IMG/VR virus record: IMGVR_UViG_3300024258_000005
Source: a virus
Reading direction: 5' to 3' (one strand)
Length of the DNA: 64,000 nucleotides
This document shows positions 6,593-52,591 of the stretch, piece by piece; within the stretch, counting starts at the first letter, position 1, and every line of letters begins with the position of its first letter. A program made the position numbers and the translations under genes. Under the pieces are notes generated by a model. That model was given only the letters and a program-made list of their open reading frames with translations. It had not been told where the DNA came from and ran no database searches.

Positions 6593-6658
6593 TTCATAGG
6601 TTTTCTTGTCCTTTATTCATAGTTCCTTGAACAAATATTAAAACTAGAAGGAGTACAC

Positions 6659-8032
6659 ATGGATTATTCAGCAGGTACTATGAGAAGTGCATTAGTAGGA
6701 AACACACAAAGTATTATAATTGAAAAATCATATATAGGTGTAATCAAAGAAGGTGTTAGTAAAGAACTTGATGGAAAATATTTAGTTCATATTCGAGAAC
6801 TTATGGGTTTGGATGGAGCGCTTAAACCTATATGGGTAAAAAATGAAGTACTTGGAAACAGATTTTCTAGATGGTTAGATTTAGAATCAAAAGATACAAA
6901 ATCTTCTGGTTCATATTTTCCATTGCAACCAGGTATGATGGTCAATGTTAGGTTCCGTGGTTATACAATGGAATCTGGATATATTTCAAATGTTGTTTCA
7001 TATTTACCACTTGTTGATAAACCAGGTGCAAGAGATACTTTTTATTTATTAAATAAGACTGTTAAAAATTCTTGGATTTACCAAGATGATGCTAGAAATT
7101 TAACACATATTATGCAGAGTGGGGGTAAGAGTAATATTACTTTAGATGATAATGGTATTACACTTCAAACTGGTGGTAAAGTCAAGACTAATGGTTTTGA
7201 AGTTTCAAAAACCGGTACAAGATTTGAATTTGGAAATGCTTCTATTTCTTTAGATAGTTCAGGTATTACTTTTAAAGTTGGAGACACTACTTTAACGATG
7301 TCGGAGACAGGTATTAATGTTAATACTCAAGGTGCTCTTGATATTGAATCAGGTAAGATGGCTAGGATAAAAGCTAGACGTTTAGAACTTGGTGCAAGTG
7401 AAGAAATGACATTACACTCTAATGTTCTAAGAGTAACTGGTTCAACTCAATGTTCTCTTGCCTCAAATGTAGTAAATATTAATAGTGTTATACATACTAA
7501 TATTGAGTCACAAGCTCAAGTTAATATTGCTGGATTAATGAAAACTAAAATTGCTGCTCCTGTATTAGATATAACAAGTTTAACTAATATCAATATTGCT
7601 GGACCAGTTATTACACTTTCAGGTCAAAATACAAATATTGATGGAACTGCTGCGCTTAATATATCAAGTGCTAGTATAGCAATGGATGGTATGCTATCAC
7701 ATGGTTTAGGTTTAGCTACTTCTACTAATACATCAATGGCTGCTACAAATTTAGCTCTTGGTCTTTCAACAGATGCTGCAAATATTGCTTTAGTTACTGG
7801 TTTAGGTTTATCCAATCCAGTATCAGCTATTGTTAATTCAACTATGGTTCAAGCTATTCCAGGTTCATGTGCTCCAGTTGGTGAGATATTAAAACCTGTA
7901 ATAACATCAGCGAAAGTTGGTAGCTCAACGACTGAAAAATTACAATACATTGCATCATCAAATGATAGTTATAATATAGCACTAAAAGATCAATTTGATG
8001 GATTAAGGAATACACATGAAATACGCGTCTAG
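6659..8032 (+). CDS. Baseplate central spike, gp5/VgrG-like (OB fold plus beta-helix)
   Basis: N-terminal GKYLVHI...GSYFPLQPGMMVNVRF resembles the gp5 OB fold. It is followed by periodic beta-strand repeats (SNITLDDNGITLQTG, ASISLDSSGITFKVG, TTLTMSETGINVNT), and a PAAR-like gene lies downstream. RBS aaggag. Confidence 0.75.
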   Translation: MDYSAGTMRSALVGNTQSIIIEKSYIGVIKEGVSKELDGKYLVHIRELMGLDGALKPIWVKNEVLGNRFSRWLDLESKDTKSSGSYFPLQPGMMVNVRFRGYTMESGYISNVVSYLPLVDKPGARDTFYLLNKTVKNSWIYQDDARNLTHIMQSGGKSNITLDDNGITLQTGGKVKTNGFEVSKTGTRFEFGNASISLDSSGITFKVGDTTLTMSETGINVNTQGALDIESGKMARIKARRLELGASEEMTLHSNVLRVTGSTQCSLASNVVNINSVIHTNIESQAQVNIAGLMKTKIAAPVLDITSLTNINIAGPVITLSGQNTNIDGTAALNISSASIAMDGMLSHGLGLATSTNTSMAATNLALGLSTDAANIALVTGLGLSNPVSAIVNSTMVQAIPGSCAPVGEILKPVITSAKVGSSTTEKLQYIASSNDSYNIALKDQFDGLRNTHEIRV

Positions 8033-11000
8033 TTTTGAAGATGTTTTTACAAACGGATATACTTCAGAGTCTCGTTCTCTTTTGGAGGCTGAAACTATAA
8101 ATTCAATAAATAATAACATGGACGATGCTACCGGAACGATTCTACCACCATGTCATTTGGATTTTGGAAACTTTGGAAATATAGAATTTCCTTGGATGGA
8201 TATTAAAGCTGCTCCTGTTAATTATAAATTATTTAATAAACTTCATCAATTATCAAATGTTATTCGATCTATTAATGATGCGTTTATATCTTTAATTTTA
8301 GAGTTTCAATGTTGTGGAATTGCTGAGCTTTATAATAATAGTATTATTCCTATTTTCGAATGGGTACTTAAAGATTTTATTGGTGTTTTAACTGATATTG
8401 CTAGTGGATTAATTCAAGGCAATCAAGCGTTTAAAGTTTTAGTTTGTGCTGTAAAACCGGTTCCGGCTAACCCTTGGTTAGGTATAGGGGGCGTGGATTA
8501 TTTAAGTACAGTATATTCATATTTAAATGGTTTTGAAGCTATTTATAATTGGATTATGGATGGGAATCCAGTAGATTTAATTTTAAATCCGGTTCAAGAT
8601 TTTTATAATAAAATTAGTTCTTGTACTCCAATTAATGCCCCAGTAACGGAAGTTAACCTTGAATTAGGAAGTGAAAGATTAAAAGAATTATTATCAAGTT
8701 ATAAAAATTCAGATAAGACCAGCCCAGAAGCAATTACTTCTGTTCAACAAACATTTAATGATTTTAAATCATATGAGAAAGATAAATTCGTAATACATAG
8801 AAAGATTACAGATTTAAAAAATCAAAAAATTATTTTAAGTTATGCTCCAGAAGAATTATATGCTATATTAAGAACTTTTGATATTGATGAAGAATTAAAA
8901 ACTTTAAATGATGAAGTTAAACAATTGAATACTGACAACGCTGAAACTATTAAAGCTTATAATGCTTATCAAGATGAAGAAATTGCAAGTACAATCATTG
9001 AGAGTACAAAATTATTATCAAGTGATAGATTAGTATCAAAAAATATTGATCAATTGTTAGTTGACAAATTTAATCCTACATGTTCATGTTTGACAAATAT
9101 TATAGGAATTAGTGCTTATAATTTACCCACTTATAGAACTATTCGAACTTGGGCTGATGTTGATAATCTTTCAAGTGAAGTTCATTGGGGAAGTAGAGAA
9201 ATTTGGAAAACTGCTTTAGAAAAAATTGATGATGGTTTATCTTTAGATACTGATATTGTTAACAATATCTTTATCAGTAGAAAAAATATACAAAAATTAT
9301 ATGATGATAATAATAGTAGTATTGATCGTGATAATAAAGTAACTCTTGAAGTTAATTCTTATAATTTTGGAAATAGTATATCTGGAAGTGACATAGATTA
9401 TAATTATATTGATGGTAATGGTGTTAGAGAAGATGAATCTTTTGATGTTTCAGTTGTTTCAAATCTTCCTTTTATAACTTGGGATACACAAAAGCTTTAT
9501 TTATATAGTGATGTGTATGCTCATTCTGATTCTGATGTTAGAACTATTTTTGATATTAATGCAGAAAGATACGACGAAAAAAATAGATTATTAAAAGACA
9601 TGGCTATTGTTACAAGTAGAAAAATTCAAATAGAATATAGAATGGAAGAAATTTGGAATAATCTCCGTAGAGCTGCTATTGATAAAATGAATTTTGAAAA
9701 ATTCTATGAAGCAACTAAAGATACAGATGAATCATTTTTAGATTTAGATATATTTCATGCTACAAGTTATAGCACTGGTTTTGAAAGTAGTTTAGATTTT
9801 CTATCAGGTGCAAACATGTTATCTAAACTTGGTGCTGGTTTTGATATGAATAAGTTTTTATTAGAATTTCAAATTACAGATTTTACATTTGATGAAGCTG
9901 AAACTGATATGGAAAACTTTGAATTTCTTAAAATTGAATGGATTGAACTTTCAAAAAGTGCTGGTCAGTATGACGGTTTAATTACTAGAATCGATAGTGT
10001 TATTAAAATTGATAATGTTGTAGTTGAAATTATTGATCAAAGTATTCAAGATTGTGGATGTGATATACTTTGTAAATTACTTCAATGGGTTTTAGATATT
10101 ATTTTAAGTACTGTTAATTCACTTATTGAGATGATAATTGCTAAAATTTTAAAGATGGTATTAAACGAACATGTTGCTTATATAATAAAAGTTATTTTAC
10201 AATATGCTCAATGTATTGCGGATATTGCGGCATTCAGTGATAATATAAGTGATATTAAAGCCAGAGCTTCTGCTATGAATGATGAAACATCTGGAGAAAA
10301 TGCTGGACTAAATCTTATGAAAGATCCTGCTTATTGTGATGCTCAGGCAACTGTTTTTAATACTTTAGATAAATTATTAATAGAAGATGAGATTCATGTT
10401 TCTCATGGTGATGCAAATGATTTAGATGATGATGATACTATTATATATCCTGATCCTAGTTTTGGTGTAATTGATACAGATAATACTCCAAATCCTGGAA
10501 ACATTCTTATTAATAATGGAACAACAGTTAAAGGTGATATTAAAGCAGGTAAATCAATACCTGAAGTAGAAATAATTTGTGCTGAGGATTTAAAACCTAG
10601 CTTAACTGCTGTTTTAGATCCAGTAAATCAATATGAAGTTCTACTTGTGTTTAAACCTAGTGATTATATAAATTCTGCACCTGTGGTTGAAGTGGAACAA
10701 GGTGATATTGTTACACCTGATGCATTAGATATAGATGGGAATATTATAAACACCAGTGAAGTAACAAGTCAAGTTCAATCACTTAGTGATCTTTTAAAAG
10801 TTGCAGAACAACAAGTACAAGAAGCTTTAAATGCTCCTGTGTATTTAGATACGGATTGCGAAATACATGCTACGCCAAATACAATGACATTATGTAGTAC
10901 TGATAATTTATTTATTGAAAGTACTTATATTATTGATGATGTGGGTGAAGAAGTTGTAGATTTTGATACATATGGTGAGCTATCTGCGAACGCAAATATA

Positions 11001-22831: not shown

Positions 22832-25192
22832 TTATACTACTTGTATATTTAAATTAATTGAATCATAATCAAAGAAGAAATAAGGAGGAACAAAATTAAC
22901 TATATCAAATAGTTTTAAATCTGCTCCACCTAATTTATTATCCATTGCATTATAAATAATTCTGGCGCTGTTTGTTGTAAACACTTTGGGACTGATAACA
23001 TCGACATTTTTAATCATGTCATATATTTTAACAATTTCTTTTTCAAGTAGTGTCTCATAAAATTCAGTTTCAAACCCTTCAGCTGTTCGAAGAACTTTAT
23101 ATATTGTATCCTTCATATCATATTCAAGTTCTTCAATTGATTCATAATCAGATAAAGAGTATTTATATTTATCGATAATAAGATCGATTACAATAATATT
23201 TCTAGTAGTAAGAATATCACCATTAGTATTCTTATCAATAATATATTCTCTATATTTAGGTTCAATTGCAATCGTGTTATAAAATGATTGTGTTGTTCCT
23301 ACATTAAAACTAATTGTTTTAATATCTTTTTCCACTCGAAAGAAAGTATCTAGTTTAGTAAAGAACTTTTCTATATTAGAAAGTTTAAGATAATTTAATT
23401 CCAGAAAAGGTAAATGTAATACATATCTAGTTTCATCTTGAGTATTTAATATATCAAGTTCAGTGTAGTAAAAGTGATCTTGTTTTTTTACTAGTTGATT
23501 ATATGAACCAACAGAAGTGTAAGTCATTACAAGTAAAGTATCTTGATAAATATCAATTTCAATATCTGATAAATCATCTTCAAATAAACAATATTCATCT
23601 AGAAATCTTTGGTTGACAATTTGTTTAAATTCATTATGAATAGAAAGTTCCATATCAAATTTATTACTTCTAAGTTTATATGTATATAATGTATTGAAAT
23701 TTTTAAGTTCAAGACGAGTTTTTCTTTCAAAATAATCATATGTTATATAAAGACCTACAGAATTCTGTAACTTAGTAAGTCTATCAGTAGAAGTATCTGT
23801 TTTCAATTCTACTTTTATATTTGGTTGTACCATATATGCAGTATAATGATTAAATCTTTTCTTATAATAAAAAGGACTAATTAAATCGATACCTTCATAT
23901 GTTTTAGTTGGCATAAACAATTCTGATTGAAATTCTGATTCTTCTATGTTAAATGTATTTGTTGGCACTATACGTTGATTTGTATCTCTGATAATATTAT
24001 ATATAAATAAATGATTTTGAGAGTTAAAGAATTTTGGATCCACGAATGGGATACCATCATCCATTGTATACATAATTTCAAAATCATTAATTGATGTAAT
24101 TGAATTTCTTGTACTATTCTTTTTAATCATTTCGGTTTTTATATCTTCAATATCTTTAATATCCATACCAAGTTCACCACCACTTAAAGAAAGAACTTTT
24201 AAGTTGGTTTTAGAAGCAGTACTATAACCACCTTCATCCTCAGATGAAACAATAATATCTTCAAGATTGATCTCAGCAGAGTTTACATTACCTCCTGAAC
24301 CTTTAGTAAGCTTCGTTTCAATAATAATTTGATCACCCGCAAATAGCTTGCGACCATTAATACCATCACCAACTGTAAATATAAGTTGATTCTCGGCTAT
24401 CTTCAAATACAAGTTATCATCAAATTGGCTAGCATTAAATTTATTATATTTAATTTGCATTTGAGATAAATCACCATAACCTTTAATGTTATCAGTATCT
24501 AGTAAATATAAATCATCTAATTCAACTTCGGGTTTTTCATTTGCTTCATTTTTAATCCAAGCTTGAATCTCATAAATATCATCTAAACTAGGAATATCTA
24601 AAGAGAATGAAAATGTTTCGCCAATACCATAATCAGGTATGTTAAATTTGTGGAATGATCTTTTATATTGTCTAAGTCCATTATATTCAACCATGTACAT
24701 ATTTAAATCAGCGTTTAACGGATTCTGTACTTTACTTACTTCAAGTACATTAATTTCTGTATCTGAATATCTCTTTGCTGTTACAACTGAGTTATTTACA
24801 AAGATTTTTACATCTTCTTCTAATGTATAATTTAATCCTGAACCATCAACAAAACTCACATTTCTTTTAATATCATAAGTAATGATTTCACTTTCTCTTA
24901 ATCTGTATTCAGGGATAAGAAATGATATCTGCATTGAAGCAGGTGTACCAAAAGTAATGTTATAGTTTAGAATACTTGCGTGGAATAATAATGAACTAAA
25001 TTCTGTTGCTGTTGCAGGATTCATTTCGCGTAGCAGCTTATTATAATATATTGCATTATCATATTTAATGTTAGCAAATATATTAACTAATGTTCCAAGT
25101 GCTCCTGTTTTTAACAAAGCAGGATTACTAACTTTTAATGTATCACGAACTATATTTTCATAGTCTAAAAGTGTATCAGTAATACTTTTCAT
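22832..25192 (-). CDS. Baseplate wedge protein, T4 gp6/baseplate-J-like
   Basis: REMNPATATEFSSLLFHASILNY, IFTVGDGINGRKL, TKGSGGNV and RNSITSINDFE are gp6-type motifs. Confidence 0.8.
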   Translation of the reverse strand: MKSITDTLLDYENIVRDTLKVSNPALLKTGALGTLVNIFANIKYDNAIYYNKLLREMNPATATEFSSLLFHASILNYNITFGTPASMQISFLIPEYRLRESEIITYDIKRNVSFVDGSGLNYTLEEDVKIFVNNSVVTAKRYSDTEINVLEVSKVQNPLNADLNMYMVEYNGLRQYKRSFHKFNIPDYGIGETFSFSLDIPSLDDIYEIQAWIKNEANEKPEVELDDLYLLDTDNIKGYGDLSQMQIKYNKFNASQFDDNLYLKIAENQLIFTVGDGINGRKLFAGDQIIIETKLTKGSGGNVNSAEINLEDIIVSSEDEGGYSTASKTNLKVLSLSGGELGMDIKDIEDIKTEMIKKNSTRNSITSINDFEIMYTMDDGIPFVDPKFFNSQNHLFIYNIIRDTNQRIVPTNTFNIEESEFQSELFMPTKTYEGIDLISPFYYKKRFNHYTAYMVQPNIKVELKTDTSTDRLTKLQNSVGLYITYDYFERKTRLELKNFNTLYTYKLRSNKFDMELSIHNEFKQIVNQRFLDEYCLFEDDLSDIEIDIYQDTLLVMTYTSVGSYNQLVKKQDHFYYTELDILNTQDETRYVLHLPFLELNYLKLSNIEKFFTKLDTFFRVEKDIKTISFNVGTTQSFYNTIAIEPKYREYIIDKNTNGDILTTRNIIVIDLIIDKYKYSLSDYESIEELEYDMKDTIYKVLRTAEGFETEFYETLLEKEIVKIYDMIKNVDVISPKVFTTNSARIIYNAMDNKLGGADLKLFDIVNFVPPYFFFDYDSINLNIQVV

Positions 25193-25263
25193 AAATCTCC
25201 TTTTTTTATTTAATATTTGTTGGCTTGTTTGAAATTAACCTCAAGGAAATCTTAGAAAAGAAA

Positions 25264-25596
25264 TTAATCTTTTCTAAGAGAATCTAGGGCACCACCTGAG
25301 AAGTAAAATCCTAAGATGGCTAATATAATCATACCTAAATTAAAAGCCGCTATAATCGCTATAATCGCTTTATAGTCTACACCTATAGCATTAGCTGATA
25401 ATGCTAATGATATTGCTATAACATATATTAACGAGAAGATTAAAGCTATTGAACGTTGCATTAATTTGAACGCTGTGTACTCGCTAAACATAAAATTAAT
25501 TTGTTTGGTTTTTGTATCATCTGATATAGGAAGAGAGTTGATGAATTCAACTCTATCTGCTATATATTCTTTTGTTCCAAATATTTTTCCTATCAT
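25264..25596 (-). CDS. Holin-like membrane protein (3TM/GTA-type holin family)
   Basis: MIGKIFG... N-terminus, FKLMQRSIALIFSLIYVIA TM segment and C-terminal GMIILAILGFYFSGG, a pattern typical of this holin family. Confidence 0.65.
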   Translation of the reverse strand: MIGKIFGTKEYIADRVEFINSLPISDDTKTKQINFMFSEYTAFKLMQRSIALIFSLIYVIAISLALSANAIGVDYKAIIAIIAAFNLGMIILAILGFYFSGGALDSLRKD

Positions 25597-25608
25597 TTAT
25601 TTTCCTTC

Positions 25609-26775
25609 TTAAAATAATATATCTAATCTGATACAATATCTAAATGATTCATCATCTATTGGTGTAACACTGTTACCACCAGATAATTTAGCATAATCTA
25701 TTTGTTCGTATCTTCCGGTTACACCTAGTTTAATCTTTGGTGTAACATATATACCTGTATACACTTTAAAGGTATTTCCTAAATTACCCCATGAGTAAGC
25801 ATTTATATTTTCTAAATCGGTAGCATAACTTATCCAATGTTTAGAAGCATAAAAATACTCTGCACCGAAATAAGAATCTAATCTAAATATATTAGCATCA
25901 AAATCTTTCTTAGCTCCAACAAGAACACTATATCCAGTTCGTTTACCTTCATCGCTAAAGTTGATACCCGGACCTTCTAATGCTGTGCCAGTTGGTGATA
26001 TTTCTGTACCATCAAAATCTGTAACAGATACCCCGGCTATACCATAATATACCATTCCTGATGTATCTCGATCATCATACTGATAACCAACACCTGCGAA
26101 GTATAAATTTCCTAATGATTCTAATGTTTCTTCATCATATATCTTTTCATATATAATATTCGATACTGAAGCATTAATTCTAAACGTATGTTTATCAATT
26201 ACACTCTTTGTAAATAAATATCCTATATCACTTCCATTTCTAGAGTTTTCATATCTATCTTCTGGTAACTGGTAAATGTCATCTATTCTGGCACCATAAC
26301 CAAATTGTATTTTATGATTTTCATTTATATAATGGGTATAAAATACACCAGTCATATTAATATAATAAAATGTCATAAGAGCATCGCTAAGTTTTAAACC
26401 AGCAGTACTATGTTCACTAAACACACCATTCTTAAAACTAAAATTACCAACGCTGATAATATCATCAGGTGTTATAAATATGTTTAAATCTAATTCACTA
26501 ATTTCAAAATAATTCTCAGCTGGACGTATTTTATTATATGAACGAGAATATATCTCTGATCTACTTGTATAATTAATCGTACTATTAATAGTAACATATT
26601 TATTAAATATGATGTCATTATAAGTATTCAATATTATTCTATGTCCTTCGGCTTCTATATCATTTCCTAGAACTGTTCCACTACTACTGCCATACATAAA
26701 CTCTAGTTTGTTAAAATTTTTAAGTTCTACCGCGTATAAGTTTAAACAGATTACTAATATCATTAAATATTTCAT
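25609..26775 (-). CDS. Outer-membrane beta-barrel (porin-like; DUF3373-like by recall)
   Basis: Signal peptide MKYLMILVICLNLYA, alternating aromatic/hydrophobic beta-strands throughout, FGAEYFYASKHW segment, and a C-terminal BAM beta-signal YCIRLDILF ending in Phe. Confidence 0.75.
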   Translation of the reverse strand: MKYLMILVICLNLYAVELKNFNKLEFMYGSSSGTVLGNDIEAEGHRIILNTYNDIIFNKYVTINSTINYTSRSEIYSRSYNKIRPAENYFEISELDLNIFITPDDIISVGNFSFKNGVFSEHSTAGLKLSDALMTFYYINMTGVFYTHYINENHKIQFGYGARIDDIYQLPEDRYENSRNGSDIGYLFTKSVIDKHTFRINASVSNIIYEKIYDEETLESLGNLYFAGVGYQYDDRDTSGMVYYGIAGVSVTDFDGTEISPTGTALEGPGINFSDEGKRTGYSVLVGAKKDFDANIFRLDSYFGAEYFYASKHWISYATDLENINAYSWGNLGNTFKVYTGIYVTPKIKLGVTGRYEQIDYAKLSGGNSVTPIDDESFRYCIRLDILF

Positions 26776-27041
26776 AATTTATCTCCTATCTCACGTGAGT
26801 GCTTATCAATATCAAACCCTTTTGAAATCAAGCATTGCCCTAAATAAAATTTATCAAAGTCACTTACTTTGCCGTCTGTATACTCATAAAGTTCATTCTT
26901 TTTAACTACCCTTTTCCATCCAGAGATACTTTTTATCTCGGGCGAAATTAGATACTTGTTAAAATATATTTGACAGGATTCAGCATACACATGAGAAAAT
27001 GATAGCATTATAATAATGCATATCTTTTTTATATTTTTCAT
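26772..27041 (-). CDS. Small secreted (periplasmic) protein with two Cys
   Basis: Signal peptide MKNIKKICIIIMLSFSHVYA with an AxA-like cleavage site; the mature part has two Cys (ESCQ, GQCL). ATGA overlap with the porin gene. Confidence 0.6.
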   Translation of the reverse strand: MKNIKKICIIIMLSFSHVYAESCQIYFNKYLISPEIKSISGWKRVVKKNELYEYTDGKVSDFDKFYLGQCLISKGFDIDKHSREIGDKL

Positions 27042-28394
27042 TTACACTCCTATATATATTGCAGGGAAGATTATTTCGAATACTGTTCCGTTTCCGGATG
27101 TTTCACGAAGTTTTAAATCTCCTGCCTTTTCATTTAGTAACTCTTTATTTAAATAAAGACCTACACCTCTAACATTAACATCAGTTGGTTTTTTAAATAT
27201 GTTTGCTAATTTATGTAAAGAGTCTAATATGTATCCTTTAGATTCGCGAATTACAAACTCACCTGATGAATCTTTACTTGAATAGTATGGTTTAAATATG
27301 TCTTCATATTTCTCTTTACTAAGAAGTAGACCAGTTGTTCTATCTCTTAATCCTACACCATTATCTATAATATATAAATGTAAATCTTTAGTTACATTAT
27401 TAAATTTAACTTGTGTGACAATTCTTGATGAGTTTGCTTCTAAAGAATTTCTAAAATGATTAGATACAATATTTAAAAGGTCACCATTTTTTAATAGTCC
27501 ATCTAATTTGTATTTTCCTAAATTGGGATCTATTTTGATATTAAAATTTGATTTTTTATATATGTTCATTGAGTTCACACTGTACTCAATTATGTTTTTT
27601 AATGTTTTATTTCCCTTACTGTATTTCAAGTTTTTAAAATTACTCATACGCTGGAGAACATTATCTATTTGTTCTATACTAGAATATAATTGACCGAAGT
27701 CGAAGAAGAATTTTTCATTACACTTACAATCATAAATGGGAGATAATGTGCTTTGCATTTCAATTTCTAACTTTCTAATATTACCTTGAATAATAGCAAC
27801 AGGTGTATTAAGTTCATGATGAATATTCTCCGTTAGGATTTGCATATTCTTTTCTCTTAATGTATTACTTGTACTCATCATATCTAAAATTTTTCGTTTT
27901 CTTAATTTATATTCTAAACCGAAGAAGACAAAGGTGTATATTAAAAATAATATAATATTTATATTTATATACCCCATAAAAATATTGTCTATTAAAAGTT
28001 GTGTATTTGGAACTATATAAATTTGATAATCAGGAAATTCCATATATAAATTTAAATTATTAGTTAATGATAGTTCTTTACCACTAAAAGATAACTCTGG
28101 TTTTAAATAGGATTCTCTTTGTAATATATTATTTTCTTGTAGAGTATAAGTTGAATTATTGACAAATCCTATTTCAGAACAAGTTGTAATAATACATAAA
28201 TGTTGTAAATCAATTTCATCAAACTCTTCAATAATACTTATAATAGTAGAATTTATTCTATCCTTATATACTACATTTATTGTATAAAAATTTTCAAATA
28301 GTACAGCATTCATAATAAATATATTTAATAAAAGATATAAACTATAACGTGTACACGTTTTAATATTGTCATGGGTATACATTATATCTCCCAT
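27042..28394 (-). CDS. Membrane sensor histidine kinase
   Basis: Two TM segments flank a roughly 100-aa extracytoplasmic region. H box NIHHELNTP, N box NHFRNSLEA, G1 IIDNGVGL, F box DIFKPYYSSK, G2 GVGLYLNK and terminal GTVFEIIFP are all present. Confidence 0.93.
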   Translation of the reverse strand: MGDIMYTHDNIKTCTRYSLYLLLNIFIMNAVLFENFYTINVVYKDRINSTIISIIEEFDEIDLQHLCIITTCSEIGFVNNSTYTLQENNILQRESYLKPELSFSGKELSLTNNLNLYMEFPDYQIYIVPNTQLLIDNIFMGYININIILFLIYTFVFFGLEYKLRKRKILDMMSTSNTLREKNMQILTENIHHELNTPVAIIQGNIRKLEIEMQSTLSPIYDCKCNEKFFFDFGQLYSSIEQIDNVLQRMSNFKNLKYSKGNKTLKNIIEYSVNSMNIYKKSNFNIKIDPNLGKYKLDGLLKNGDLLNIVSNHFRNSLEANSSRIVTQVKFNNVTKDLHLYIIDNGVGLRDRTTGLLLSKEKYEDIFKPYYSSKDSSGEFVIRESKGYILDSLHKLANIFKKPTDVNVRGVGLYLNKELLNEKAGDLKLRETSGNGTVFEIIFPAIYIGV

Positions 28395-29053
28395 TTTTGC
28401 TGAGTGTAATACTCTTCTATTAAATCTCCATACGCTGAAACTCTATTACCATTTTTATTAATAATATGTTTATACATTTCAATCTCTTCACCTTTGTAAA
28501 CTAACTTTTTAGTTTCATCTATTGGTGTTTGGAAAAACTCTTCAAATTTTTGAATGAATTCAAAAATTTCAGGATTATATTTATTTAATGTGTGCCCTGT
28601 TATAAATTTAATTAAGCACTTTGGATTATGTTGTTTTAACATGATGGCTACATCGATGCCATCATATTCAATATTATTAATTACACCACCAAGTGTGATA
28701 TCTAGAATTCCAACATCTACTGTTTTATCAGGATCTTTAAGATATTTTTCTACTGTAAATCCAGCATAGTTGCCAGTTGCCATCATAATATTAAATTCTT
28801 TATATACATCACAATATTGAACTCTACTAAGCTCGTCTTTAATTAATTCAGCCATTCCAGTAAAATCATCCATTATAAGAATATTTGGATTTCCTTCTAT
28901 TTCTGGTTGACAGAAAAACATTTCAGGAACTTTGATACTATATTCTGCAGGTTTTAATTCTGCAGGTGTAATATATTCATCATTGAATTTCATTTTCTTT
29001 TTACGTGATTTAAAAGGGTTAATTGTTTGTATTATAGTAAGAATCTTATTCAT
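28382..29053 (-). CDS. Response regulator, receiver domain only (CheY-like)
   Basis: NILIMDDF (acidic pocket), DVGILDITL (phospho-Asp), DGIDVA, IKFITGH (conserved Thr) and a candidate Lys in IINKN. No HTH or other output domain is visible. Confidence 0.88.
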   Translation of the reverse strand: MNKILTIIQTINPFKSRKKKMKFNDEYITPAELKPAEYSIKVPEMFFCQPEIEGNPNILIMDDFTGMAELIKDELSRVQYCDVYKEFNIMMATGNYAGFTVEKYLKDPDKTVDVGILDITLGGVINNIEYDGIDVAIMLKQHNPKCLIKFITGHTLNKYNPEIFEFIQKFEEFFQTPIDETKKLVYKGEEIEMYKHIINKNGNRVSAYGDLIEEYYTQQKWEI

Positions 29054-29517
29054 TTCGTTTCCTTTATAACATCAGCTGTCTCATTTATAACTCTGATTAA
29101 ACTTTCATTAATTGCTCTGTATGCTCCAGGATCAATTTCATAAATAGTAACAAGTACCATTACAATTACTACCCAAGTAAATAAAACTCGTTTAGCATTT
29201 TCCCATGTTAACATTTCATATAATCTTTGTGTCCATGGTAAGTACTTTTTTCTTTCATTAATCATTTTATTAACAGTTGTTGATTTAATTGTTAATGCTT
29301 TATCTAAAAGAATAAGCATTTGTTTTTTATCTGATTTATTTGTCATATTAAATTCATTATATATTAGTACAAATAATTCATATGTCTCAGGGGATACTTT
29401 TTTTACTTCAAAAAATTTGCCCATAAGATCTTGTTTTTCATCATCAGAATTTTTATAGTTCAGTATATCAATTCTTAATTCTTCTAATTTATTACTTAAT
29501 GTAATATAATCTTCCAT
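29050..29517 (-). CDS. Membrane-anchored hypothetical protein (single C-proximal TM)
   Basis: Hydrophobic VLFTWVVIVMVLVTIY segment, RBS aaggagag, and an ATGA overlap with the response regulator. Confidence 0.7.
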   Translation of the reverse strand: MEDYITLSNKLEELRIDILNYKNSDDEKQDLMGKFFEVKKVSPETYELFVLIYNEFNMTNKSDKKQMLILLDKALTIKSTTVNKMINERKKYLPWTQRLYEMLTWENAKRVLFTWVVIVMVLVTIYEIDPGAYRAINESLIRVINETADVIKETK

Positions 29518-29541
29518 ACTCTCTCCTTTTTATTCTCGTGT

Positions 29542-30468
29542 TTAATTGTTGTCTAAACTATGTGCTTTTGACATATCTTCTATAAATTCATCAAATAATG
29601 GACCTTTACGGTCAGCATCACTATCATAAAATTTATAAACCATATCATTTGATTTATAACTTTGATTTATTGTTGATATGGCATTTTTGCCTCTATCACC
29701 AATTATTTGTTTAAATGGTAAATTGATAGGAGATACTCCCATAATTTTAACTAAGCCTCTAATATTGGTTGTGAATGGTGCAAATATAACTACCCAAACA
29801 GCATTGAAATATGGAACATCTATAAAGTATTTTTTATCAACATTTTCTGGAATGTCTGGTTTAATATAACCTTTCTTTAAAGCATCTATATATTTAAACC
29901 AACTTTCATGGTATCTAAAAATGTGGTTATTATAGTCGTCAATATAATTTATACTAAAATCACCAGCAAAGTGCAACTTACTTGCGTAATTAAGATTTCT
30001 TGATTTACCTGATATACTTTCATATTCAATATTTAATTGAGGAATATCAATATCAGTTGCAAGTTGACCAAAATCCTTTGCTACTTTATTAAAGTGACCT
30101 TTATTAAATGTACTTGTATCATTATTAGTAATATAATCTTTTTCATATGAACTAATAACCTCTGTCTCTGTCTCTGCTGTCGTAGATTTTAAAGTCTGAG
30201 CTGTATTAACCCATGAACCATGAACCATTTGAATATAATAATAACCATTAATATGAGGAGCGAAGCTACTATAATCAATAGTTACTTTCTCATGCATAAT
30301 TTGAATAAGTTTATCATATTTAGGATTAGTAGCATTATGTGCGGTATTAAATTTCTTACTAATTTGTTCTTTATATGTGGTGGAATCTTCTATTCCACTA
30401 ATATCAGATGTTATATCCGATTGAGTTACGGGTGTTGCTGTAGTACTATTAAATTCCGTTAATGGCAT
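29542..30468 (-). CDS. Tail tube-like paralogue (tube initiator/hub, gp48/gp54-like)
   Basis: PHINGYYY...DIDIPQL...GDFSINYIDD..NHIFRYHESW parallels the tube gene at 38.7 kb (PYIKGYFY...EFSIQYKDF...IFRIHRQW). Confidence 0.6.
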   Translation of the reverse strand: MPLTEFNSTTATPVTQSDITSDISGIEDSTTYKEQISKKFNTAHNATNPKYDKLIQIMHEKVTIDYSSFAPHINGYYYIQMVHGSWVNTAQTLKSTTAETETEVISSYEKDYITNNDTSTFNKGHFNKVAKDFGQLATDIDIPQLNIEYESISGKSRNLNYASKLHFAGDFSINYIDDYNNHIFRYHESWFKYIDALKKGYIKPDIPENVDKKYFIDVPYFNAVWVVIFAPFTTNIRGLVKIMGVSPINLPFKQIIGDRGKNAISTINQSYKSNDMVYKFYDSDADRKGPLFDEFIEDMSKAHSLDNN

Positions 30469-30496
30469 TTATTTTTCCTTTTAAATTATTAATTTT

Positions 30497-30556
30497 GAAG
30501 ACTTTATAAATTGAAAAAATTTGAATTTATAAAGTCTTCGAGTCTAAGACTCGAAG
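30497..30556 (-). terminator. Two overlapping hairpins after the 392-aa gene
   Basis: gaagactttataaatt (30497-30512) pairs with aatttataaagtcttc (30524-30539); cttcgagtct-a-agactcgaag (30536-30556) overlaps it. Confidence 0.55.
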
Positions 30557-31722
30557 TTAGCATCTTTACAAAATGCTTGTTTTGCTCGTAGTACTATTAA
30601 TAATAATAGAACCTTTCTAAGTTTTAATCGACTGCTATTGCTACCAGATTTCATAATACCTTTATACATTGTATTTAAAAGAGTATCGACATATTTCTTA
30701 AGCTTAGCAATTTGAACATTATTACCCTTAGCCGAAGTTATCTTAGACACTGTCTGTAATATATGCATACCACATATTTTTGTATCATCAATTTTGATAA
30801 TATTAAACATCAATTCATAAATATTTTTAAGATCATCTTCTGCATCGTCAGAGTTTAAAAACACTTCTGAATCAGTTAGGAACTTATTTGAAATTGAATA
30901 AGGATCTGCTTTAAGATACCTTCTATCGCTTTCGGATATTTTTTGAGGACGATGCATTAGATTCTTTTGTAGTTTGCTAACGGTACTTGCTACCTTAGAA
31001 CTTTCAATTGAATCAACTTCTGTACCCTTAACATCAGATGTTGCTCCGATAACAGATTTATTACCATCAGCATGTGCTTGATAATAATGTTTTTGTATTC
31101 CCATGAATACTTGTTCCATTCTTCCCCATGCTTGCATCAATATAACAACTAAACCTAAAGTAGGATGAGCTGGATCTTTTTGAACATATGGAAAGTATTT
31201 TTCATCTAGAGTTGGTGCAAAGTATTGTGTAATTGCTACAAATGGATTGGGATATTTTTTAAAAGTATGTGACTTACGAAATATACTTTGAATTAAAAAT
31301 TGTGCAATCTCATCTTGACAGCCATTAGGCATGAACTTATATTGTCTACCATTAAACACTTTAACATATATAAGAGCAATCGAAATTGTTCTTAATAAAT
31401 CATCATCTGCTCTTACCCCAATGTAATATACAAGGCTTAAAGTTTGATAATATAAAGAACTATACATTCTTGAATCAGGATGAAATCCAATTTGAGTAAA
31501 ACTACTAAGCATTTGTCTATCGCTTATGCCAAATATCTTTAATAATTTCTTATCAAGTGTATTAGGTGTTCTAAGTGCATTACAAAAACTAGAATGACCC
31601 ATAGAGTCATTGTTTAGTTTTCGAATGATAGCAATTAGTAGATTTTTAATCTCATCATATAGTACTTTATTTTTAAGTATTTTATCTGCAACGAACTCTA
31701 TTTCTTGTGGCATTTTATGCAT
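30544..31722 (-). CDS. Hypothetical protein (392 aa)
   Basis: Long ORF with an RBS; no family recognised. Confidence 0.65.
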   Translation of the reverse strand: MHKMPQEIEFVADKILKNKVLYDEIKNLLIAIIRKLNNDSMGHSSFCNALRTPNTLDKKLLKIFGISDRQMLSSFTQIGFHPDSRMYSSLYYQTLSLVYYIGVRADDDLLRTISIALIYVKVFNGRQYKFMPNGCQDEIAQFLIQSIFRKSHTFKKYPNPFVAITQYFAPTLDEKYFPYVQKDPAHPTLGLVVILMQAWGRMEQVFMGIQKHYYQAHADGNKSVIGATSDVKGTEVDSIESSKVASTVSKLQKNLMHRPQKISESDRRYLKADPYSISNKFLTDSEVFLNSDDAEDDLKNIYELMFNIIKIDDTKICGMHILQTVSKITSAKGNNVQIAKLKKYVDTLLNTMYKGIMKSGSNSSRLKLRKVLLLLIVLRAKQAFCKDANFES

Positions 31723-49304: not shown

Positions 49305-50819
49305 TTAAGATAAATAATTTTTTATAAAACTCATGTTACCTGAGTCATATATAACTCGATATTTATTTTCTATCATATTTTGAATCTCTGTTTTTTCAGA
49401 ATCAAAAGTATCCAAAAGGGCTTCTAATTTATGCTTTTGAAATTTTATTCTTGAATATAATTCATTATTTTTAAAATAAAAATAATTAGGATTTGATATT
49501 GTATTATGTTTAAAATTTAATGTTTTATACAAATTACCATTACTCCATCTCCTATTAGCATATGAAATTAATATGTCTGGTTTATAATGTATCTCGAAGT
49601 ATTTTAATAATTTACTTGCAGCTCCTGGTACCTGAAGATTTAATTTTGAACAAAATCTAATTAATTCAAAACTAATATTTTTATCATATCTACTTTTACC
49701 AAAAGTCATAACAGATACCAATTCATCTGTTGCGTTACTAAATAATCCTAATTGTATAGAACTTTGACATTTACCTTGTAAATGGTTTTCATCTAAAAAA
49801 TTATTAGTTAAAGAATTATCAATCTCTTTAATATAACATTCTCTTGCTCCGATTTTAAATTCAACTTTTCCTAAAGCATTTCTTATTTGACTTTTCCAAA
49901 TTTCTTTTTTCTTTTCCCATTCATTTTCAAATATATGAAACAATTGATAACCTTTTGATTCACAAGCTACTGTTTTTTTAATATGTCTGTTTTTATTATA
50001 ATTTAAATTATTTTGTTTATCATTAACGTTATTTAAACCATAACTATGCCAATATAAACCGTTAAATTCAATTGCAACCTTATAATCAGGTATTAATATA
50101 TCAAGCTCTAGAGGAGATATAAGAGTCCTATCACTTTGCTTAATATCTAATCCTAAAGATTCTACAAAATCCGCAACCTCTTTTTCAGGACTTGATATTA
50201 AACCATTAGTGTATACAATATTAAGATATTGCATTCTTTTGTTAATATTAGATTTAGAAATATTAAAATGCAAAACCATTTTATCGATATCAAGTATATT
50301 ATTTGTAATAAAATTTTTTATAATATATTGTTTATTGTAATCTTTTATATTTGTAAAATGTTTATATGTACTTGAGACAGCCCCATATTTTAATATACAT
50401 GTTTCTTTTACTTTTTTTTGAACTACTGGAACTTGCATATGATTATCAACCCCATATTTCTTTCGACATGTATTTTTAGTTTTCTTATTTTTAGTTATCT
50501 TTTTTTCTTCTGTCCAACTTTTTGATATTTGTTTTCTTAAAACTGAATCTTTATTTCTGCATGTGATTGAACAATATTGTCTAAATAAATTCTTTTCATT
50601 ATCAAATTTTGTATGATTTTTACAATCAATAGAACGACATTCTATATGTGATTTATTCATAACATATAAGTAAATTCTAGCTTTATCTGAATATACATCA
50701 TATGTTGTTTCTAATATTAGATCCCATATAGGAAGATCTAATATTTTTTTATTATTAGAACGTAATTTTAATGGGTCTTTCGATTTTATATATGGTGCTA
50801 TTGTTGTTATATCATTCAA
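49305..50819 (-). mobile_element. Hef-like homing endonuclease (504 aa)
   Basis: ISPLELDILIPDYKVAIEFNGLYWHS, LFHIFENEW, GARECY, ELIRFCS, ISYANRRWS; variable Cys-containing N-terminus. Confidence 0.8.
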
Positions 50820-50953: not shown

Positions 50954-52591
50954 TTAATAACTTTTGATAAAACTTAAATTTCCAGCGTCATATATAGATC
51001 TATACCCGTCTTCGATCATATTCTGCATTTCTGTTTTTAATGGATCAAAAACTTCCAATTGTTTTTCTAATTTATGTTTCTGGAATTTTACACGTGAATA
51101 TAATATATCATTATTTTTAAAATAAAAATAATTGGGGTTAGATATTGTATTAACTTTAAAATTTAAAGTCTTATATAAATGACCAGTACTCCACCGTCTA
51201 TTTGCATAACTAATTAAACCATTAGGTTTATAATTTATTTCAAAATGTTTTAATAATTTACTTGCAGCTCCTGGTACTTGTAGATTTAATTTTGAACAAA
51301 ATCTAATTAATTCGAAATCAATATTCTTATTGAATCTACTTTTCCCAAAAGTCATAACAGAAACCAATTCATCCGTTACTTTACTAAACAATCCTAATCT
51401 AATAGAGCTTTGACATTTACCTTGTAAATGATTAATATCCAAAAAATTATTAGTTAAAGAATTATCAATCTCTTTGATGTAACATTCTCTTGCACCTAAA
51501 CGATATTTACATTTTCCTAAAGCATTTCTTATTTGACTTTTCCAAATATTTTTCTTATTATCCCATTCATTTTCAAATATATGAAACAATTGAAAATTTT
51601 TATTTTCACATGCTTCTGTTTTTTTAACATGTCTATTTTTATTATATTTAAGATCTCCTTGATTATAATTAGTGTTATTTAAACCATAACTATGCCAATA
51701 TAAACCGTTAAACTCAATAGCAATATTATGATCAGGTATTATTATATCAAGCTCTAGAGGAGATATAAGAGTCCTATCACTCTGTTTAATATCAACATCT
51801 AAACTTTTAATAAAATCAGCAACTTCTTGTTCTGCTCTTGATATACCATTTTTAGATTTAAAATCTATGTTATTTAATTTCAAAAAATTATATGCTGTTA
51901 TTTTATTAATATTAAAATATTCACAAAACTTTAGAAGATTAATAGTCTCATCTGGTAAAATAAAATGTTTTTTTATATATGCTTTATTGTAATTGTTATA
52001 ATTTGTAATATTTAACTGTTGATGATGTCGGTCTTTATAAACATGTGGAACTTTATTATTTCTATGTAAATTTTTTATTTGATTTTGATTAGTTACTCCA
52101 TACTTATTAAATATTGTTTTTTGTAGCTTCTGTTGTCGTATACTGTGTTTATCATCGTGAACACAATCACAAAAAGTATTAAAAAAATTAGTGCTCTTAT
52201 TAAAGGTTTTCGTATTAAAACAATTTGAAGATTCACAAATTAATTCTTGTTCTGATAAATCATAAACTAAGATAAACATTCGAACAAGTATACTTCCTTT
52301 AAAAAATTTCGTATCTTCTAATATTTTGTCATAAATGATATCATCTTGTAATTTTTTTAGATTTATAAGTTGTCCATCTTTTCGTATATATTCAGTTAAA
52401 TTATATTTTTCAATTAAAACTAAATTTCTTTTAATCTTTAGTTTTCTTAATTCAATTTTAATAGAAATTAATTCTTCTTTATTTTTTTCAATCTCTATTA
52501 AAATTGAAGAATTTTTCTGTTTTTTGTCTTGCAATTTCAATAATTGAATTTTTCTTTTAATCTCTATATATTTTTTATATAATAATAACAT
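50954..52591 (-). mobile_element. Hef-like homing endonuclease (545 aa), tandem paralogue
   Basis: Same C-terminal motifs as the 504-aa copy, with identical DNA stretches (e.g. tcaagctctagaggagatataagagtcctatcact in both). Confidence 0.8.

Follow-up and report, generated by a model that had tools for sequence, protein, structure and literature searches.

A phage-encoded histidine kinase and a receiver-only response regulator form the core of a six-gene operon that may sense the host envelope

Introduction

Two-component systems are seen as cellular equipment. What, then, does a pair consisting of a histidine kinase and a response regulator do in viral DNA? The pair studied here lies in a stretch of 64,000 nucleotides (IMG/VR record IMGVR_UViG_3300024258_000005), the whole of which is called the window in the following, and had first been noticed in a reading of the letters and open reading frames without database searches (the sequence-only reading). 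Our literature search returned no paper matching 'phage-encoded histidine kinase / two-component' phrases. The papers that were found treat phage-borne kinases as single auxiliary or accessory genes only (PMC10987575, PMC4936722), and a review of jumbo phages mentions only a divergent cREC domain, which is never tied to kinases. The interpretation that we favor, and consider reasonably probable, is that the pair belongs to a working signaling module of an uncultured jumbo-phage lineage, that this module senses the periplasm or the envelope, and that it is neither a relic nor a recent copy of host genes.

Results

Genetic organization

The genes for the kinase (HK) and the response regulator (RR) lie at the center of an operon of six translationally coupled genes at positions 25264-29517. 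The features, in operon order, are:

U155, 29050-29517, minus strand: bitopic membrane protein, 155 aa, first gene of the operon
RR, 28382-29053, minus strand: receiver-only response regulator, 223 aa
HK, 27042-28394, minus strand: membrane histidine kinase, assigned to class I, 450-aa ORF
S89, 26772-27041, minus strand: secreted small periplasmic protein, 89 aa
OMP, 25609-26775, minus strand: putative outer-membrane beta-barrel, DUF3373 / TCDB 1.B.62 putative porin, 388 aa
M110, 25264-25596, minus strand: protein of 110 aa with 2-3 transmembrane segments, last gene of the operon in the window
Terminator-like hairpin, 25250-25279, minus strand: 12-bp stem, overlapping the M110 stop

From U155 to M110, successive genes are spaced by -4, -1 (counted from the probable start of HK), 0, -4 and +12 nt. 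The U155 stop and the RR start overlap by 4 nt, the S89 ATG directly abuts the HK stop, and the S89 stop and the OMP start overlap as ATGA. The likelier start of HK is the ATG at 28382: it is preceded by a GGGAGAT ribosome-binding site, and TAATG marks its overlap with the stop of RR. A start at this position would give a protein of 446 aa, which is also the length of the called protein P0001; HK residues are nevertheless numbered here according to the 450-aa ORF. At the junctions that were read, ribosome-binding sites precede U155, HK and S89.

Upstream of U155, at a distance of 24 nt and with an AAGGAG-type ribosome-binding site in between, lies a tail-tube-like gene, and the module as a whole sits among virion genes in the window. 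Late expression is probable because of this neighborhood. The timing itself is a guess, since promoter-like signals of the sigma-70 type were fewer in the region than in shuffled sequences and the 24-nt gap leaves little room for a promoter. The hairpin at 25250-25279 probably marks where the transcript of the operon ends on its 3' side; hairpin-type sites as such were not more numerous in the region than in shuffles. That the pair belongs to an operon, and is no isolated moron, had not been mentioned in the sequence-only reading.

The histidine kinase

By its motifs and its predicted fold, HK is a class I (HisKA-type) histidine kinase. All boxes that the sequence-only reading had listed (H, N, G1, F, G2) were found and are invariant in alignment A1. 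The H box reads IHHELNTP, with H193 as the phospho-acceptor and with H193, E194 and P198 invariant in A1. It is followed by the N box (N312/N316), the G1 box (D344-G346-G348), the F box (F367), the G2 box (R409-G410-G412) and then G436-T437, which are likewise invariant in A1. This conservation holds across the family: H193, P198, N316, D344, G346, G348, G410 and G412 are kept in all 205 full-length members, E194 in 203 of them, and position 367 is F or Y in 202.

The features that had been called odd turned out to be properties of the family or of a part of it. The HHE variant of the H box is a family signature, H192 being present in 172 of the 205 members. The YDCKC motif in the DHp hairpin is real as well (residues 220-224); it is a CxC motif in the window and mostly CxxC in the relatives, and is restricted to a part of the family (55 of 97 members with a long lid versus 24 of 107 with a short one). 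Insertions on both sides of the F box do exist and occur together in about half of the family, yet the sizes given for them, roughly 13 and 35 aa, were slightly too large. From G1 to F there are 18 residues compared to the canonical 9, and from F to G2 there are 42 compared to 10-19, which corresponds to inserts of about 9 and about 30 aa.

In Pfam, HK matched HATPase_c with 30 bits (E=7.3e-7), above the cut-off of 26.4, whereas its match to HisKA (19.3 bits, E=1.2e-3) was below the cut-off of 26.9; a precomputed PF00512 match is present in some of its relatives. Profile matches in the PDB were SrrB and HK853, and in Foldseek the model matched HK853, CpxA, WalK, ZraS and LOV-FixL chimeras with E-values of 1e-9 to 1e-11. 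The AF2 model (pLDDT 82.9, above 90 over residues 10-160) shows a first transmembrane segment (TM1), a PAS/PDC-like periplasmic sensor, TM2, the DHp helices (132-216 and 233-257) and a CA domain (265-447) with an enlarged ATP lid. No HAMP domain is present in the model, and TM2 runs unbroken into the DHp helix. The periplasmic domain carries a CxxxxC pair (C67, C72), which is kept in 164-167 of the 205 members and probably forms a disulfide that stabilizes the domain.

The response regulator

The DD, D and T residues of the receiver had been noted before and are D62, D63, D118 and T152. K200, which was missing from that list, is also present and makes the active-site quintet complete. In alignment A5, which comprises 37 RRs with 20-64% identity to the window RR, D63, D118 and K200 never vary, and the conservation of D62 and T152 reaches at least 90%.

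Sequence profiles recognize this receiver poorly. The match to Pfam Response_reg reached 21.2 bits (E=3.3e-4; cut-off 30.2), none of 30 RR homologues has a precomputed Pfam match, the PDB profile search returned only E>=0.03, and the sole NCBIfam match, to CpdR, was very weak (E=0.024). Because these scores and that of HisKA are below the curated cut-offs, the assignment of RR and of the HisKA domain rests on the motifs and the predicted folds. The AF2 model of RR (pLDDT 90.5) is a confident REC fold of the CheY-like (beta-alpha)5 type. Its top listed Foldseek matches were almost all REC domains, with those of ComE, DrrB, CheY-like proteins, RcsB and Spo0F at the top, in addition to two chains of the GTPase YsxC; the target-normalized TM-score was at most 0.74.

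In the model, an N-terminal extension of about 55 aa, consisting of an amphipathic F/K-rich segment and a linker, precedes the REC domain (~55-222); residues 1-45 are disordered. The F/K-rich composition and, by hydrophobic moment, the amphipathic character of the N-terminus are found in most members. The REC domain contains two beta-hairpin inserts, 121-131 and 181-194. The latter lies between T152 and K200 and represents the insert after the Thr that the sequence-only reading had pointed out together with the extension. The protein ends with helix alpha5 of the REC domain (204-222). Neither an HTH, the absence of which had been stated before, nor another output domain was seen in the model or by Foldseek, and no HTH family was found in RR in the Pfam and NCBIfam searches. 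A receiver without output is not odd in itself; proteins made of a REC domain alone, among them CheY, Spo0F and DivK, are common.

The known anti-phage defense systems were considered for the operon as well and rejected: the PADLOC models gave only a chance-level match of RR to SspD (E=0.004, 14.8 bits).

U155, S89, OMP and M110

U155 consists of a helical cytoplasmic N-terminal domain of ~110 aa, one transmembrane segment and a periplasmic tail of ~30 aa. No family match was found in Pfam, PHROG or NCBIfam, and the ESM Atlas gave no usable match. Sequence conservation in alignment A3 is low, with no invariant column, and the architecture is kept. Homologues of U155 adjoin RR on its upstream side in 22 distinct loci, including loci in which HK has only 26-29% identity. 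An HPt or Spo0B-like phosphotransferase was rejected, as there is no conserved His; a weak SPOB_a match occurs in one of 17 U155 members. Likewise rejected was an HTH protein, the look-alike stretch in the window copy not being conserved. A complex prediction with RR 48-223 and U155 1-112 (alignments A5 and A3) returned 'no answer' with a score of 0.00, which counts neither way.

S89 has a Sec signal peptide ending in ...HVYA-ES and no L-x-x-C lipobox. Alignment A4 shows a K-S-x-x-G-W-x-R motif, in which G41, W42 and R44 are invariant and S38 is nearly so. S89 had no match in Pfam, PHROG or NCBIfam, and no similarity to RcsF or CpxP was detected. The ESM Atlas gave sub-threshold leads (0.77), one of them to a 'periplasmic protein' cluster of Campylobacterota.

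OMP is a putative outer-membrane beta-barrel of the DUF3373 porin type. It matched DUF3373 above the Pfam cut-off (39.4 bits, E=5.1e-10; cut-off 26.1), and like these porins it has an N-terminal signal-like segment and a C-terminal Phe (...LDILF). DUF3373 has been placed among the putative porins of TCDB 1.B.62, a family of ~505 aa (PMC4827864). In contrast to these, OMP is shorter (388 aa), phage-encoded and co-translated with S89 and the kinase. The homology search with OMP returned phage-clade proteins only, and no DUF3373 match was found anywhere in 14 control genomes and one other. The signal peptide, the DUF3373 match and the terminal Phe suggest that the host is a diderm.

M110 matched phrog_9646 (2.7e-11), a family of unknown function, and would be holin-like by size and topology alone. 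It occurs only in the window and in L001 and L002, three loci in all; L001 and L002 are places of a single sequence. M110 is therefore outside the conserved core.

Distribution and phage origin

The module was compared across 27 distinct loci. RR is found in 25 of them, U155 in 22, S89 (directly after HK) in 14 and OMP (following S89) in 11. The trio of U155, RR and HK thus recurs in 22-25 of the 27 loci, down to 26% identity. The gene order within the module is constant, whereas the flanking genes differ. Divergences of the components correlate pairwise (HK-RR: Spearman 0.64, Mantel p=0.001), as is expected from shared descent alone.

The sequence-only reading had taken the pair to be phage-encoded, and this is borne out by its surroundings. 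The window contains genes for a tail sheath, a major head protein, RNR and a homing endonuclease, and relatives of the module lie in phage genomes of 187-222 kb that are complete, have direct terminal repeats and carry exactly one such RR each. The composition of the module equals that of the rest of the window. No integrase was seen, as would fit a lytic lifestyle, and no tRNA genes were found in the window. In the search for cultured relatives, neither blastn of positions 25000-31000 nor tblastn of HK, the major head protein and the tail sheath gave a match in 50,697 phage records.

At 50% identity, the HK family falls into at least 250 clusters. Among 1.84 billion representatives, 352 matched at E<=1e-3. 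In 185,579 bacterial species genomes a single relative was found, on a 2-kb contig (L026) that carries RR, HK and S89. Its label 'Candidatus Gracilibacteria' was rejected as a clue to the host, as the contig is most simply a phage fragment binned by its low GC content. In these searches, the family behaves as a discrete group that occurs only in phage-like and metagenome contigs and is not nested among bacterial kinases.

The periplasmic domain of HK was also compared with the presence of S89. Wherever S89 is present and the topology of HK could be resolved (12 rows, 10 distinct loci), the periplasmic loop is 95-121 aa long and has the CxxxxC pair. However, the link of S89 and OMP to the sensor is loose, because about half of the loci lack both and five loci that lack them still have the long periplasmic domain.

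Discussion

Proposed mode of action

In our interpretation, HK would reside in the inner membrane of the infected cell, a diderm, with its PAS/PDC-like domain of ~95 aa facing the periplasm. A change in this domain would be passed through TM2 directly into the DHp helix, the CA domain would autophosphorylate H193, and the phosphoryl group would then be transferred to D118 of the adjacent RR. Having no output domain, RR would therefore have to work through contacts with other proteins, or else serve as a shuttle or sink for phosphate. Its amphipathic N-terminal segment probably holds it at the membrane. Gene order makes U155, encoded next to RR, the best candidate for the target of RR. In the sub-clade of the window, S89 and the DUF3373 barrel come from the same message and are probably the outer part of the sensing path, with S89 as a periplasmic co-sensor or ligand and the barrel as the outer-membrane component. 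The whole operon would then be a phage-made sensor that spans the envelope. As to the process under control, our guess is a late decision related to the envelope or to lysis.

Alternative interpretations

A different possibility, which the sequence-only reading had raised beside insulation from host systems, is that the module is directed at the signaling of the host. HK would phosphorylate response regulators of the host, or the phage receiver would drain a host kinase, whereby an envelope, motility or stress pathway would be switched off or redirected and the phage partner would be secondary. The form of RR would fit this, as phosphate sinks, e. g. those of the CheY type, usually are stand-alone REC proteins. 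Moreover, one sub-clade (L003/L004, L008) has kept HK, S89 and OMP with no RR or U155 adjacent, and L007 has two further canonical REC proteins after HK, which means that the sets of partners can change. Phage-borne phoR has been proposed to act on the PhoB of the host (PMC10987575). Yet RR lies beside HK in 25 of 27 loci and the two diverge in parallel, and the module has persisted in phages that share 26-60% identity and presumably infect different hosts. Also, the HK family is far from all bacterial kinases sampled, which would not result from mimicry of a host kinase. Taken together, we regard this interpretation as unlikely.

We likewise see only a small chance that the module is a sensor for lysis timing or superinfection, which would read envelope damage or secondary adsorption and, through RR and U155, hold back or set off lysis at its membrane step, M110 acting as the holin. 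Every part of the module would be located at the envelope, the last product of the operon is small and has 2-3 transmembrane segments, and the position among virion genes makes late expression probable. The proposed holin, however, is confined to the window and L001/L002 and has no known function. Furthermore, no endolysin, spanin or holin family was found beside the module, neither in the window nor in the ten scanned flanking proteins of the relatives.

Communication between phages is very unlikely. According to this idea, S89 or a G-W-x-R fragment of it would be secreted and cross the outer membrane via the barrel, and the HK of neighboring infected cells would read its concentration. Co-translation does join a small secreted protein to an outer-membrane channel of its own and to a kinase that faces the periplasm, and the S89 motif mixes invariant and variable positions. 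But there is no sign of processing of S89, and a folded protein of ~69 aa would not pass a porin. In addition, half of the family is without S89 and OMP, and the fact that the S89 core is invariant even between very distant phages speaks against a specific signal.

That the pair is a non-functional passenger, either a decaying island of host origin or bacterial DNA wrongly assembled into a phage contig, might be read from the weak Pfam scores and from the unusual inserts if these are taken as drift, but is already contradicted, and hardly credible, in view of catalytic residues kept to 100% over 205 diverged members, intact and coupled reading frames, the presence of the module in complete phage genomes with terminal repeats, a composition matching the rest of the window and the lack of a counterpart in the bacterial genomes searched.

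The envelope-sensing phage module is thus the reading that we retain. That the pair is not an obvious relic had also been the view of the sequence-only reading, and strong purifying selection on the catalytic residues in 205 HKs and 37 RRs agrees with it.

Implications

What is seen here is a complete kinase-receiver pair with accessory proteins of its own that has been inherited and has diversified within a phage lineage. If our interpretation is true, large phages of the virulent type measure the envelope of the host during infection and do not merely run a fixed program. This would open a testable route to how phages time late decisions, and it would give DUF3373-type barrels their first function in a phage context. 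For synthetic biology, it would provide an orthogonal kinase-receiver pair far from the bacterial ones.

A bolder extension, which we put forward as a speculation with a low chance of being right, is that jumbo phages run an autonomous circuit across the envelope, made up of the barrel, a secreted co-sensor or signal, the kinase, the tethered receiver and a bitopic effector. By this, the infected cell could perceive superinfection, infections of its neighbors or damage to the envelope, and a late decision, for example the time of lysis, could be adjusted. In phages of diderm hosts, such a circuit would be what lysis inhibition is in T4, or a parallel to arbitrium signaling, with a kinase as its basis.

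Comparison with known systems

The pair HK853-RR468 of Thermotoga maritima (PDB 3DGE and others) shares with the phage pair the arrangement TM-sensor-TM-DHp-CA without HAMP, the complete set of boxes and an adjacent REC-only partner. The identity in structural alignments is only 14-16%, however. The phage kinase differs by its HHE box, the Cys pair at the tip of the DHp and the F-box inserts of ~9 and ~30 aa; the phage REC differs by its two beta-hairpin inserts and the amphipathic N-terminal extension; and the phage system is phage-borne and includes U155 as a third gene. With CheY, Spo0F, DivK and CpdR, receivers that work through protein contacts or as links of a phosphorelay, RR has in common that it consists of REC only and has the five active-site residues, and Spo0F and CheY-like proteins were among its Foldseek matches. 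Beyond the REC superfamily there is no homology, and no HPt or Spo0B-like partner was identified.

In the CpxP-CpxA-CpxR and RcsF-OMP-IgaA-RcsCDB systems, a kinase in the inner membrane works with accessory sensors in the periplasm or the outer membrane. The phage operon likewise brings together a kinase of the inner membrane, a small protein of the periplasm and a component of the outer membrane, and CpxA matches the HK core, but this is an analogy in the way of working only: S89 is not a lipoprotein and is unlike CpxP and RcsF in sequence, and RR has no DNA-binding domain.

The best structural matches of HK among viral proteins were DHp-CA kinases of Ectocarpus siliculosus virus 1 (EsV-1), Feldmannia virus and Klosneuvirus-like viruses and a few BFVD entries named 'uncultured Caudovirales phage'. 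The EsV-1 kinases are hybrid kinases of viruses that infect eukaryotes. Most of the giant-virus kinases have ~550-1,190 aa compared to 450 in HK, identities are 11-19%, and the BFVD phage entries are uncharacterized. Phage-borne histidine kinase genes with intact catalytic residues are also known from soil viromes, where phoR/phoB occur as auxiliary genes that cluster with bacterial references and were read as host-derived (PMC10987575), and from the Pseudomonas satellite prophage AH14b, which encodes a histidine kinase (PMC4936722). Unlike these, the family of the window is separate from bacterial kinases, has its own RR and partners and is inherited in a jumbo-phage lineage.

Organization of the kinase-receiver operon

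The pair of a histidine kinase (HK) and a response regulator (RR) that the sequence-only reading had recognized as an intact two-component system is confirmed, and both ORFs lie exactly where it had placed them. Its interpretation of the pair is only partly supported, because the module turned out to be larger than that reading saw: it is a phage-lineage signaling module of three to six genes that has a genuine kinase and receiver at its base. Judged from the sequences, a signaling function of this module is plausible. In the window the pair forms the center of an operon, the genes of which follow each other downstream along the minus strand:

29050-29517, minus strand: U155, 155 aa, with a helical cytoplasmic domain, one TM segment and a short periplasmic tail
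28382-29053, minus strand: RR, receiver-only regulator, 223 aa
27042-28394, minus strand: HK, membrane histidine kinase, 450-aa ORF
26772-27041, minus strand: S89, secreted protein, 89 aa
25609-26775, minus strand: OMP, barrel protein, 388 aa, DUF3373 above the cut-off, with signal peptide and terminal Phe
25264-25596, minus strand: M110, 110 aa, two to three TM segments, phrog_9646 (unknown function), closing the operon

The junctions measure, in this order, -4, -1, 0, -4 and +12 nt, and ribosome-binding sites were read at those of U155, HK and S89. The likelier start of HK is the ATG at 28382, which has GGGAGAT as the ribosome-binding site upstream and overlaps the RR stop as TAATG; it yields a protein of 446 aa, the same as the called protein P0001. 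A hairpin with a 12-bp stem overlaps the stop of the last gene. A tail-tube-like virion protein gene is among the neighbors of the operon, and the gap between U155 and the upstream virion gene is only 24 nt; hence the operon is probably transcribed by read-through from the late structural genes. The likeness of M110 to a holin is limited to size and topology, and the gene occurs only in the window and its closest relative (L001/L002, one sequence recorded in two places).

The kinase

In Pfam, HK matched HATPase_c above and HisKA below the cut-off; NCBIfam gave weak matches to generic kinases only. The kinase motifs are complete, as had been read from the sequence: IHHELNTP with H193, N312/N316, D344-x-G346-x-G348, F367, R409-G410-x-G412 and G436-T437 (numbering of the 450-aa ORF). 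These positions are invariant in an alignment of 31 members with 29-63% identity to HK. Among 205 full-length members pooled from two database searches, H193, P198, N316, D344, G346, G348, G410 and G412 are conserved in all 205. That eight residues of the catalytic core are kept in every member indicates strong purifying selection on catalysis.

The oddities that had been pointed out in HK are real, some of them in modified form. The HHE H box is a signature of the family (172 of 205 members). The cysteine motif in the DHp hairpin occurs in part of the family only, as CxC in the window and mostly as CxxC in the relatives. The inserts around the F box, which had been put at about 13 and 35 residues, required correction: 18 residues separate G1 from F, against nine canonically, and 42 separate F from G2, against 10-19. 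Their lengths are bimodal in the family, about half of which has both inserts. A periplasmic CxxxxC pair (C67, C72), which had been overlooked, is kept in 164-167 of the 205 members.

The AlphaFold model of HK has a pLDDT of 82.9, exceeding 90 over residues 10-160. In this model a long periplasmic helix continues TM1, a small alpha/beta domain is formed by residues 63-129, and TM2 runs unbroken into DHp helix 1 (132-216); therefore a HAMP domain is not present. The hairpin tip (217-232), which bears the YDCKC motif, is of low confidence; it is followed by DHp helix 2 (233-257) and the CA domain with an extra ATP-lid helix (388-399). Foldseek matched the model to LOV-FixL chimeras (over more than 400 columns), HK853, CpxA, WalK and ZraS. 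The predicted structure thus fits a PAS/PDC-like sensor joined to a class I kinase core.

The receiver

For RR the Response_reg score is below the Pfam cut-off, and none of 30 RR homologues has a precomputed Pfam match. In an alignment of 37 RR sequences D63, D118 and K200 are invariant, and D62 and T152 nearly so. The model is confident (pLDDT 90.5). It shows a REC fold at about residues 55-222 with two beta-hairpin inserts, one just past the acceptor Asp (121-131) and one ahead of beta5 (181-194); residues 1-45 are disordered. Nothing beyond REC is attached. Receiver domains make up nearly all of the best structural matches, among them ComE, DrrB, CheY-like proteins, RcsB, Spo0F and NtrC1. 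This bears out the earlier statement that RR is without a DNA-binding output.

The N-terminus of RR is variable. In most members its first residues form a short amphipathic segment that is rich in F and K and has a high hydrophobic moment (type MNFLKKLFK). By its likeness to MinD-type targeting sequences this segment may be a membrane-targeting helix. In distant RRs (L010, L012, L014, L018, L024) the linker between this segment and REC (columns ~140-175 of alignment A2) contains a four-cysteine motif, a CxxC pair and two further cysteines, which looks like a zinc ribbon; the motif is absent from the RR of the window.

The HisKA and REC profile scores are under the Pfam thresholds; motifs and modeled folds place HK among the class I histidine kinases and RR in the REC superfamily. 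The closest working analogues of the pair are HK853-RR468 and other kinases with stand-alone receivers (CheY, Spo0F, DivK). A kinase that is combined with both a periplasmic protein and a component of the outer membrane is reminiscent of Cpx and Rcs by analogy only; family searches found no homology to Cpx or Rcs components.

Conservation of the module

The DNA around homologues was fetched from ENA, Logan, NCBI and IMG/VR, which gave 27 distinct loci. RR is directly upstream of HK in 25 of them and U155 upstream of RR in 22; S89 follows HK in 14 and the barrel follows S89 in 11. The order of the module genes is constant and the flanking genes vary: they are virion genes in the window and L001, and genes for a ParM/Alp-like actin and an RNA polymerase beta subunit in L003. 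The U155-RR-HK trio is retained even in members of only 26-29% identity. The divergences of the components correlate pairwise (HK-RR rho 0.64, Mantel p=0.001), which shows co-inheritance, not physical contact.

Several loci depart from the full set. A sub-clade made up of L003/L004 and L008 (the latter record 14% complete) has HK-S89-OMP but neither RR nor U155 beside it, and in L003 a P/Q-rich protein of 236 aa (7287-7997) occupies their place. In L007 two small canonical stand-alone REC genes (7388-8192, plus strand; Response_reg 2.1e-9 and 8.8e-5) replace S89-OMP, so that this phage has three receivers around one kinase. In L019, L022 and L024 the periplasmic loop of HK is short or absent and S89-OMP is absent. 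In all S89 loci where the topology of HK could be resolved (12 rows, 10 distinct loci), there is a periplasmic loop of 95-121 aa with the CxxxxC pair; the periplasmic domain is also kept in five loci without S89.

A lineage on phage-like contigs

The window is phage DNA. It is AT-rich throughout (GC ~23-34%), and among its genes are those of a ribonucleotide reductase, the tail sheath, the major head protein and two HNH homing endonucleases. Searches of 50,697 deposited phage genomes detected no relative of it, by DNA or by protein. Its own HK is recorded on contigs of up to 260 kb, and there are complete phage genomes, 187-222 kb long (CheckV 100%) and with direct terminal repeats, that contain exactly one RR of the family each.

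When 1.84 billion cluster representatives were scanned exhaustively with HK by phmmer, 352 proteins reached E<=1e-3; 257 of them reached E<=1e-10 and 44 reached E<=1e-30. Ordinary kinases of bacteria, of which this library must contain a great many, stayed below significance. A non-exhaustive pattern-plus-tblastn scan of one genome per species (185,579 species) found one true relative, L026 (WFMP01000054.1, 2032 bp), in a Candidatus Gracilibacteria MAG bin. Since this contig itself carries RR-HK-S89, it is probably a mis-binned phage fragment rather than a bacterial copy. Within the limits of these sequence searches, the HK family forms a lineage of its own, whose known members all come from phage-like contigs.

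Hybrid kinases are recorded in giant algal and amoebal viruses. BFVD contains a few unstudied kinase entries labeled 'uncultured Caudovirales'. Soil viromes contain phoR and phoB as auxiliary genes of a host-like type (PMC10987575), and a kinase gene is located on a satellite prophage (PMC4936722). Our literature searches turned up no description of a complete two-component operon that belongs to a phage lineage.

Possible role of the module

The analysis shows that the catalytic sites are intact, that the genes are translationally coupled and keep their order, and that the module is restricted to phage-like contigs; the topology is a predicted one. The following mode of action is proposed. 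The PAS/PDC-like domain of HK would sense a periplasmic or envelope cue, and in the sub-clade of the window S89 and the barrel would take part in sensing. H193 would become phosphorylated and pass the phosphoryl group to D118 of RR. RR, which its N-terminal helix may tether to the membrane, would then alter its contact with a partner; the best candidate for this partner is U155, being the gene with the most faithful linkage. As all parts are envelope-located, the module lies among late genes and its last gene is holin-like, our guess is that it governs an envelope- or lysis-related late decision. The holin-like gene, however, is limited to the window and L001/L002, and no lysis enzyme adjoins the module in the loci scanned. 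Given the signal peptide and the BAM-type terminal Phe of the barrel, the host must be diderm.

Other features of the window

The exact 13-mer AACAAATATTAAA is located at 25209-25221 (minus strand), 16 nt 5' of the start of a 786-aa gene; TTCCTTGA lies further upstream, just past the hairpin of the operon. A second exact copy of AACAAATATTAAA is found at 6630-6642 (plus strand) ahead of the gene at 6659. With at most one mismatch there are six sites against 2.4 expected, a count reached in 6 of 100 shuffles, which is suggestive of a phage promoter and not significant on its own.

The large subunit of the ribonucleotide reductase (171-3914, plus strand) has 1247 aa, and its best profile match spans residues 646-1246 only; its N-terminal half is unusually long or insertion-bearing. 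The two HNH homing endonuclease genes (49305-50819 and 50954-52591, both minus strand) are adjacent paralogues (phrog_3339, E 1e-113 to 1e-125) and, when the minus strand is read, directly follow the gene of the major head protein (52709-54328).
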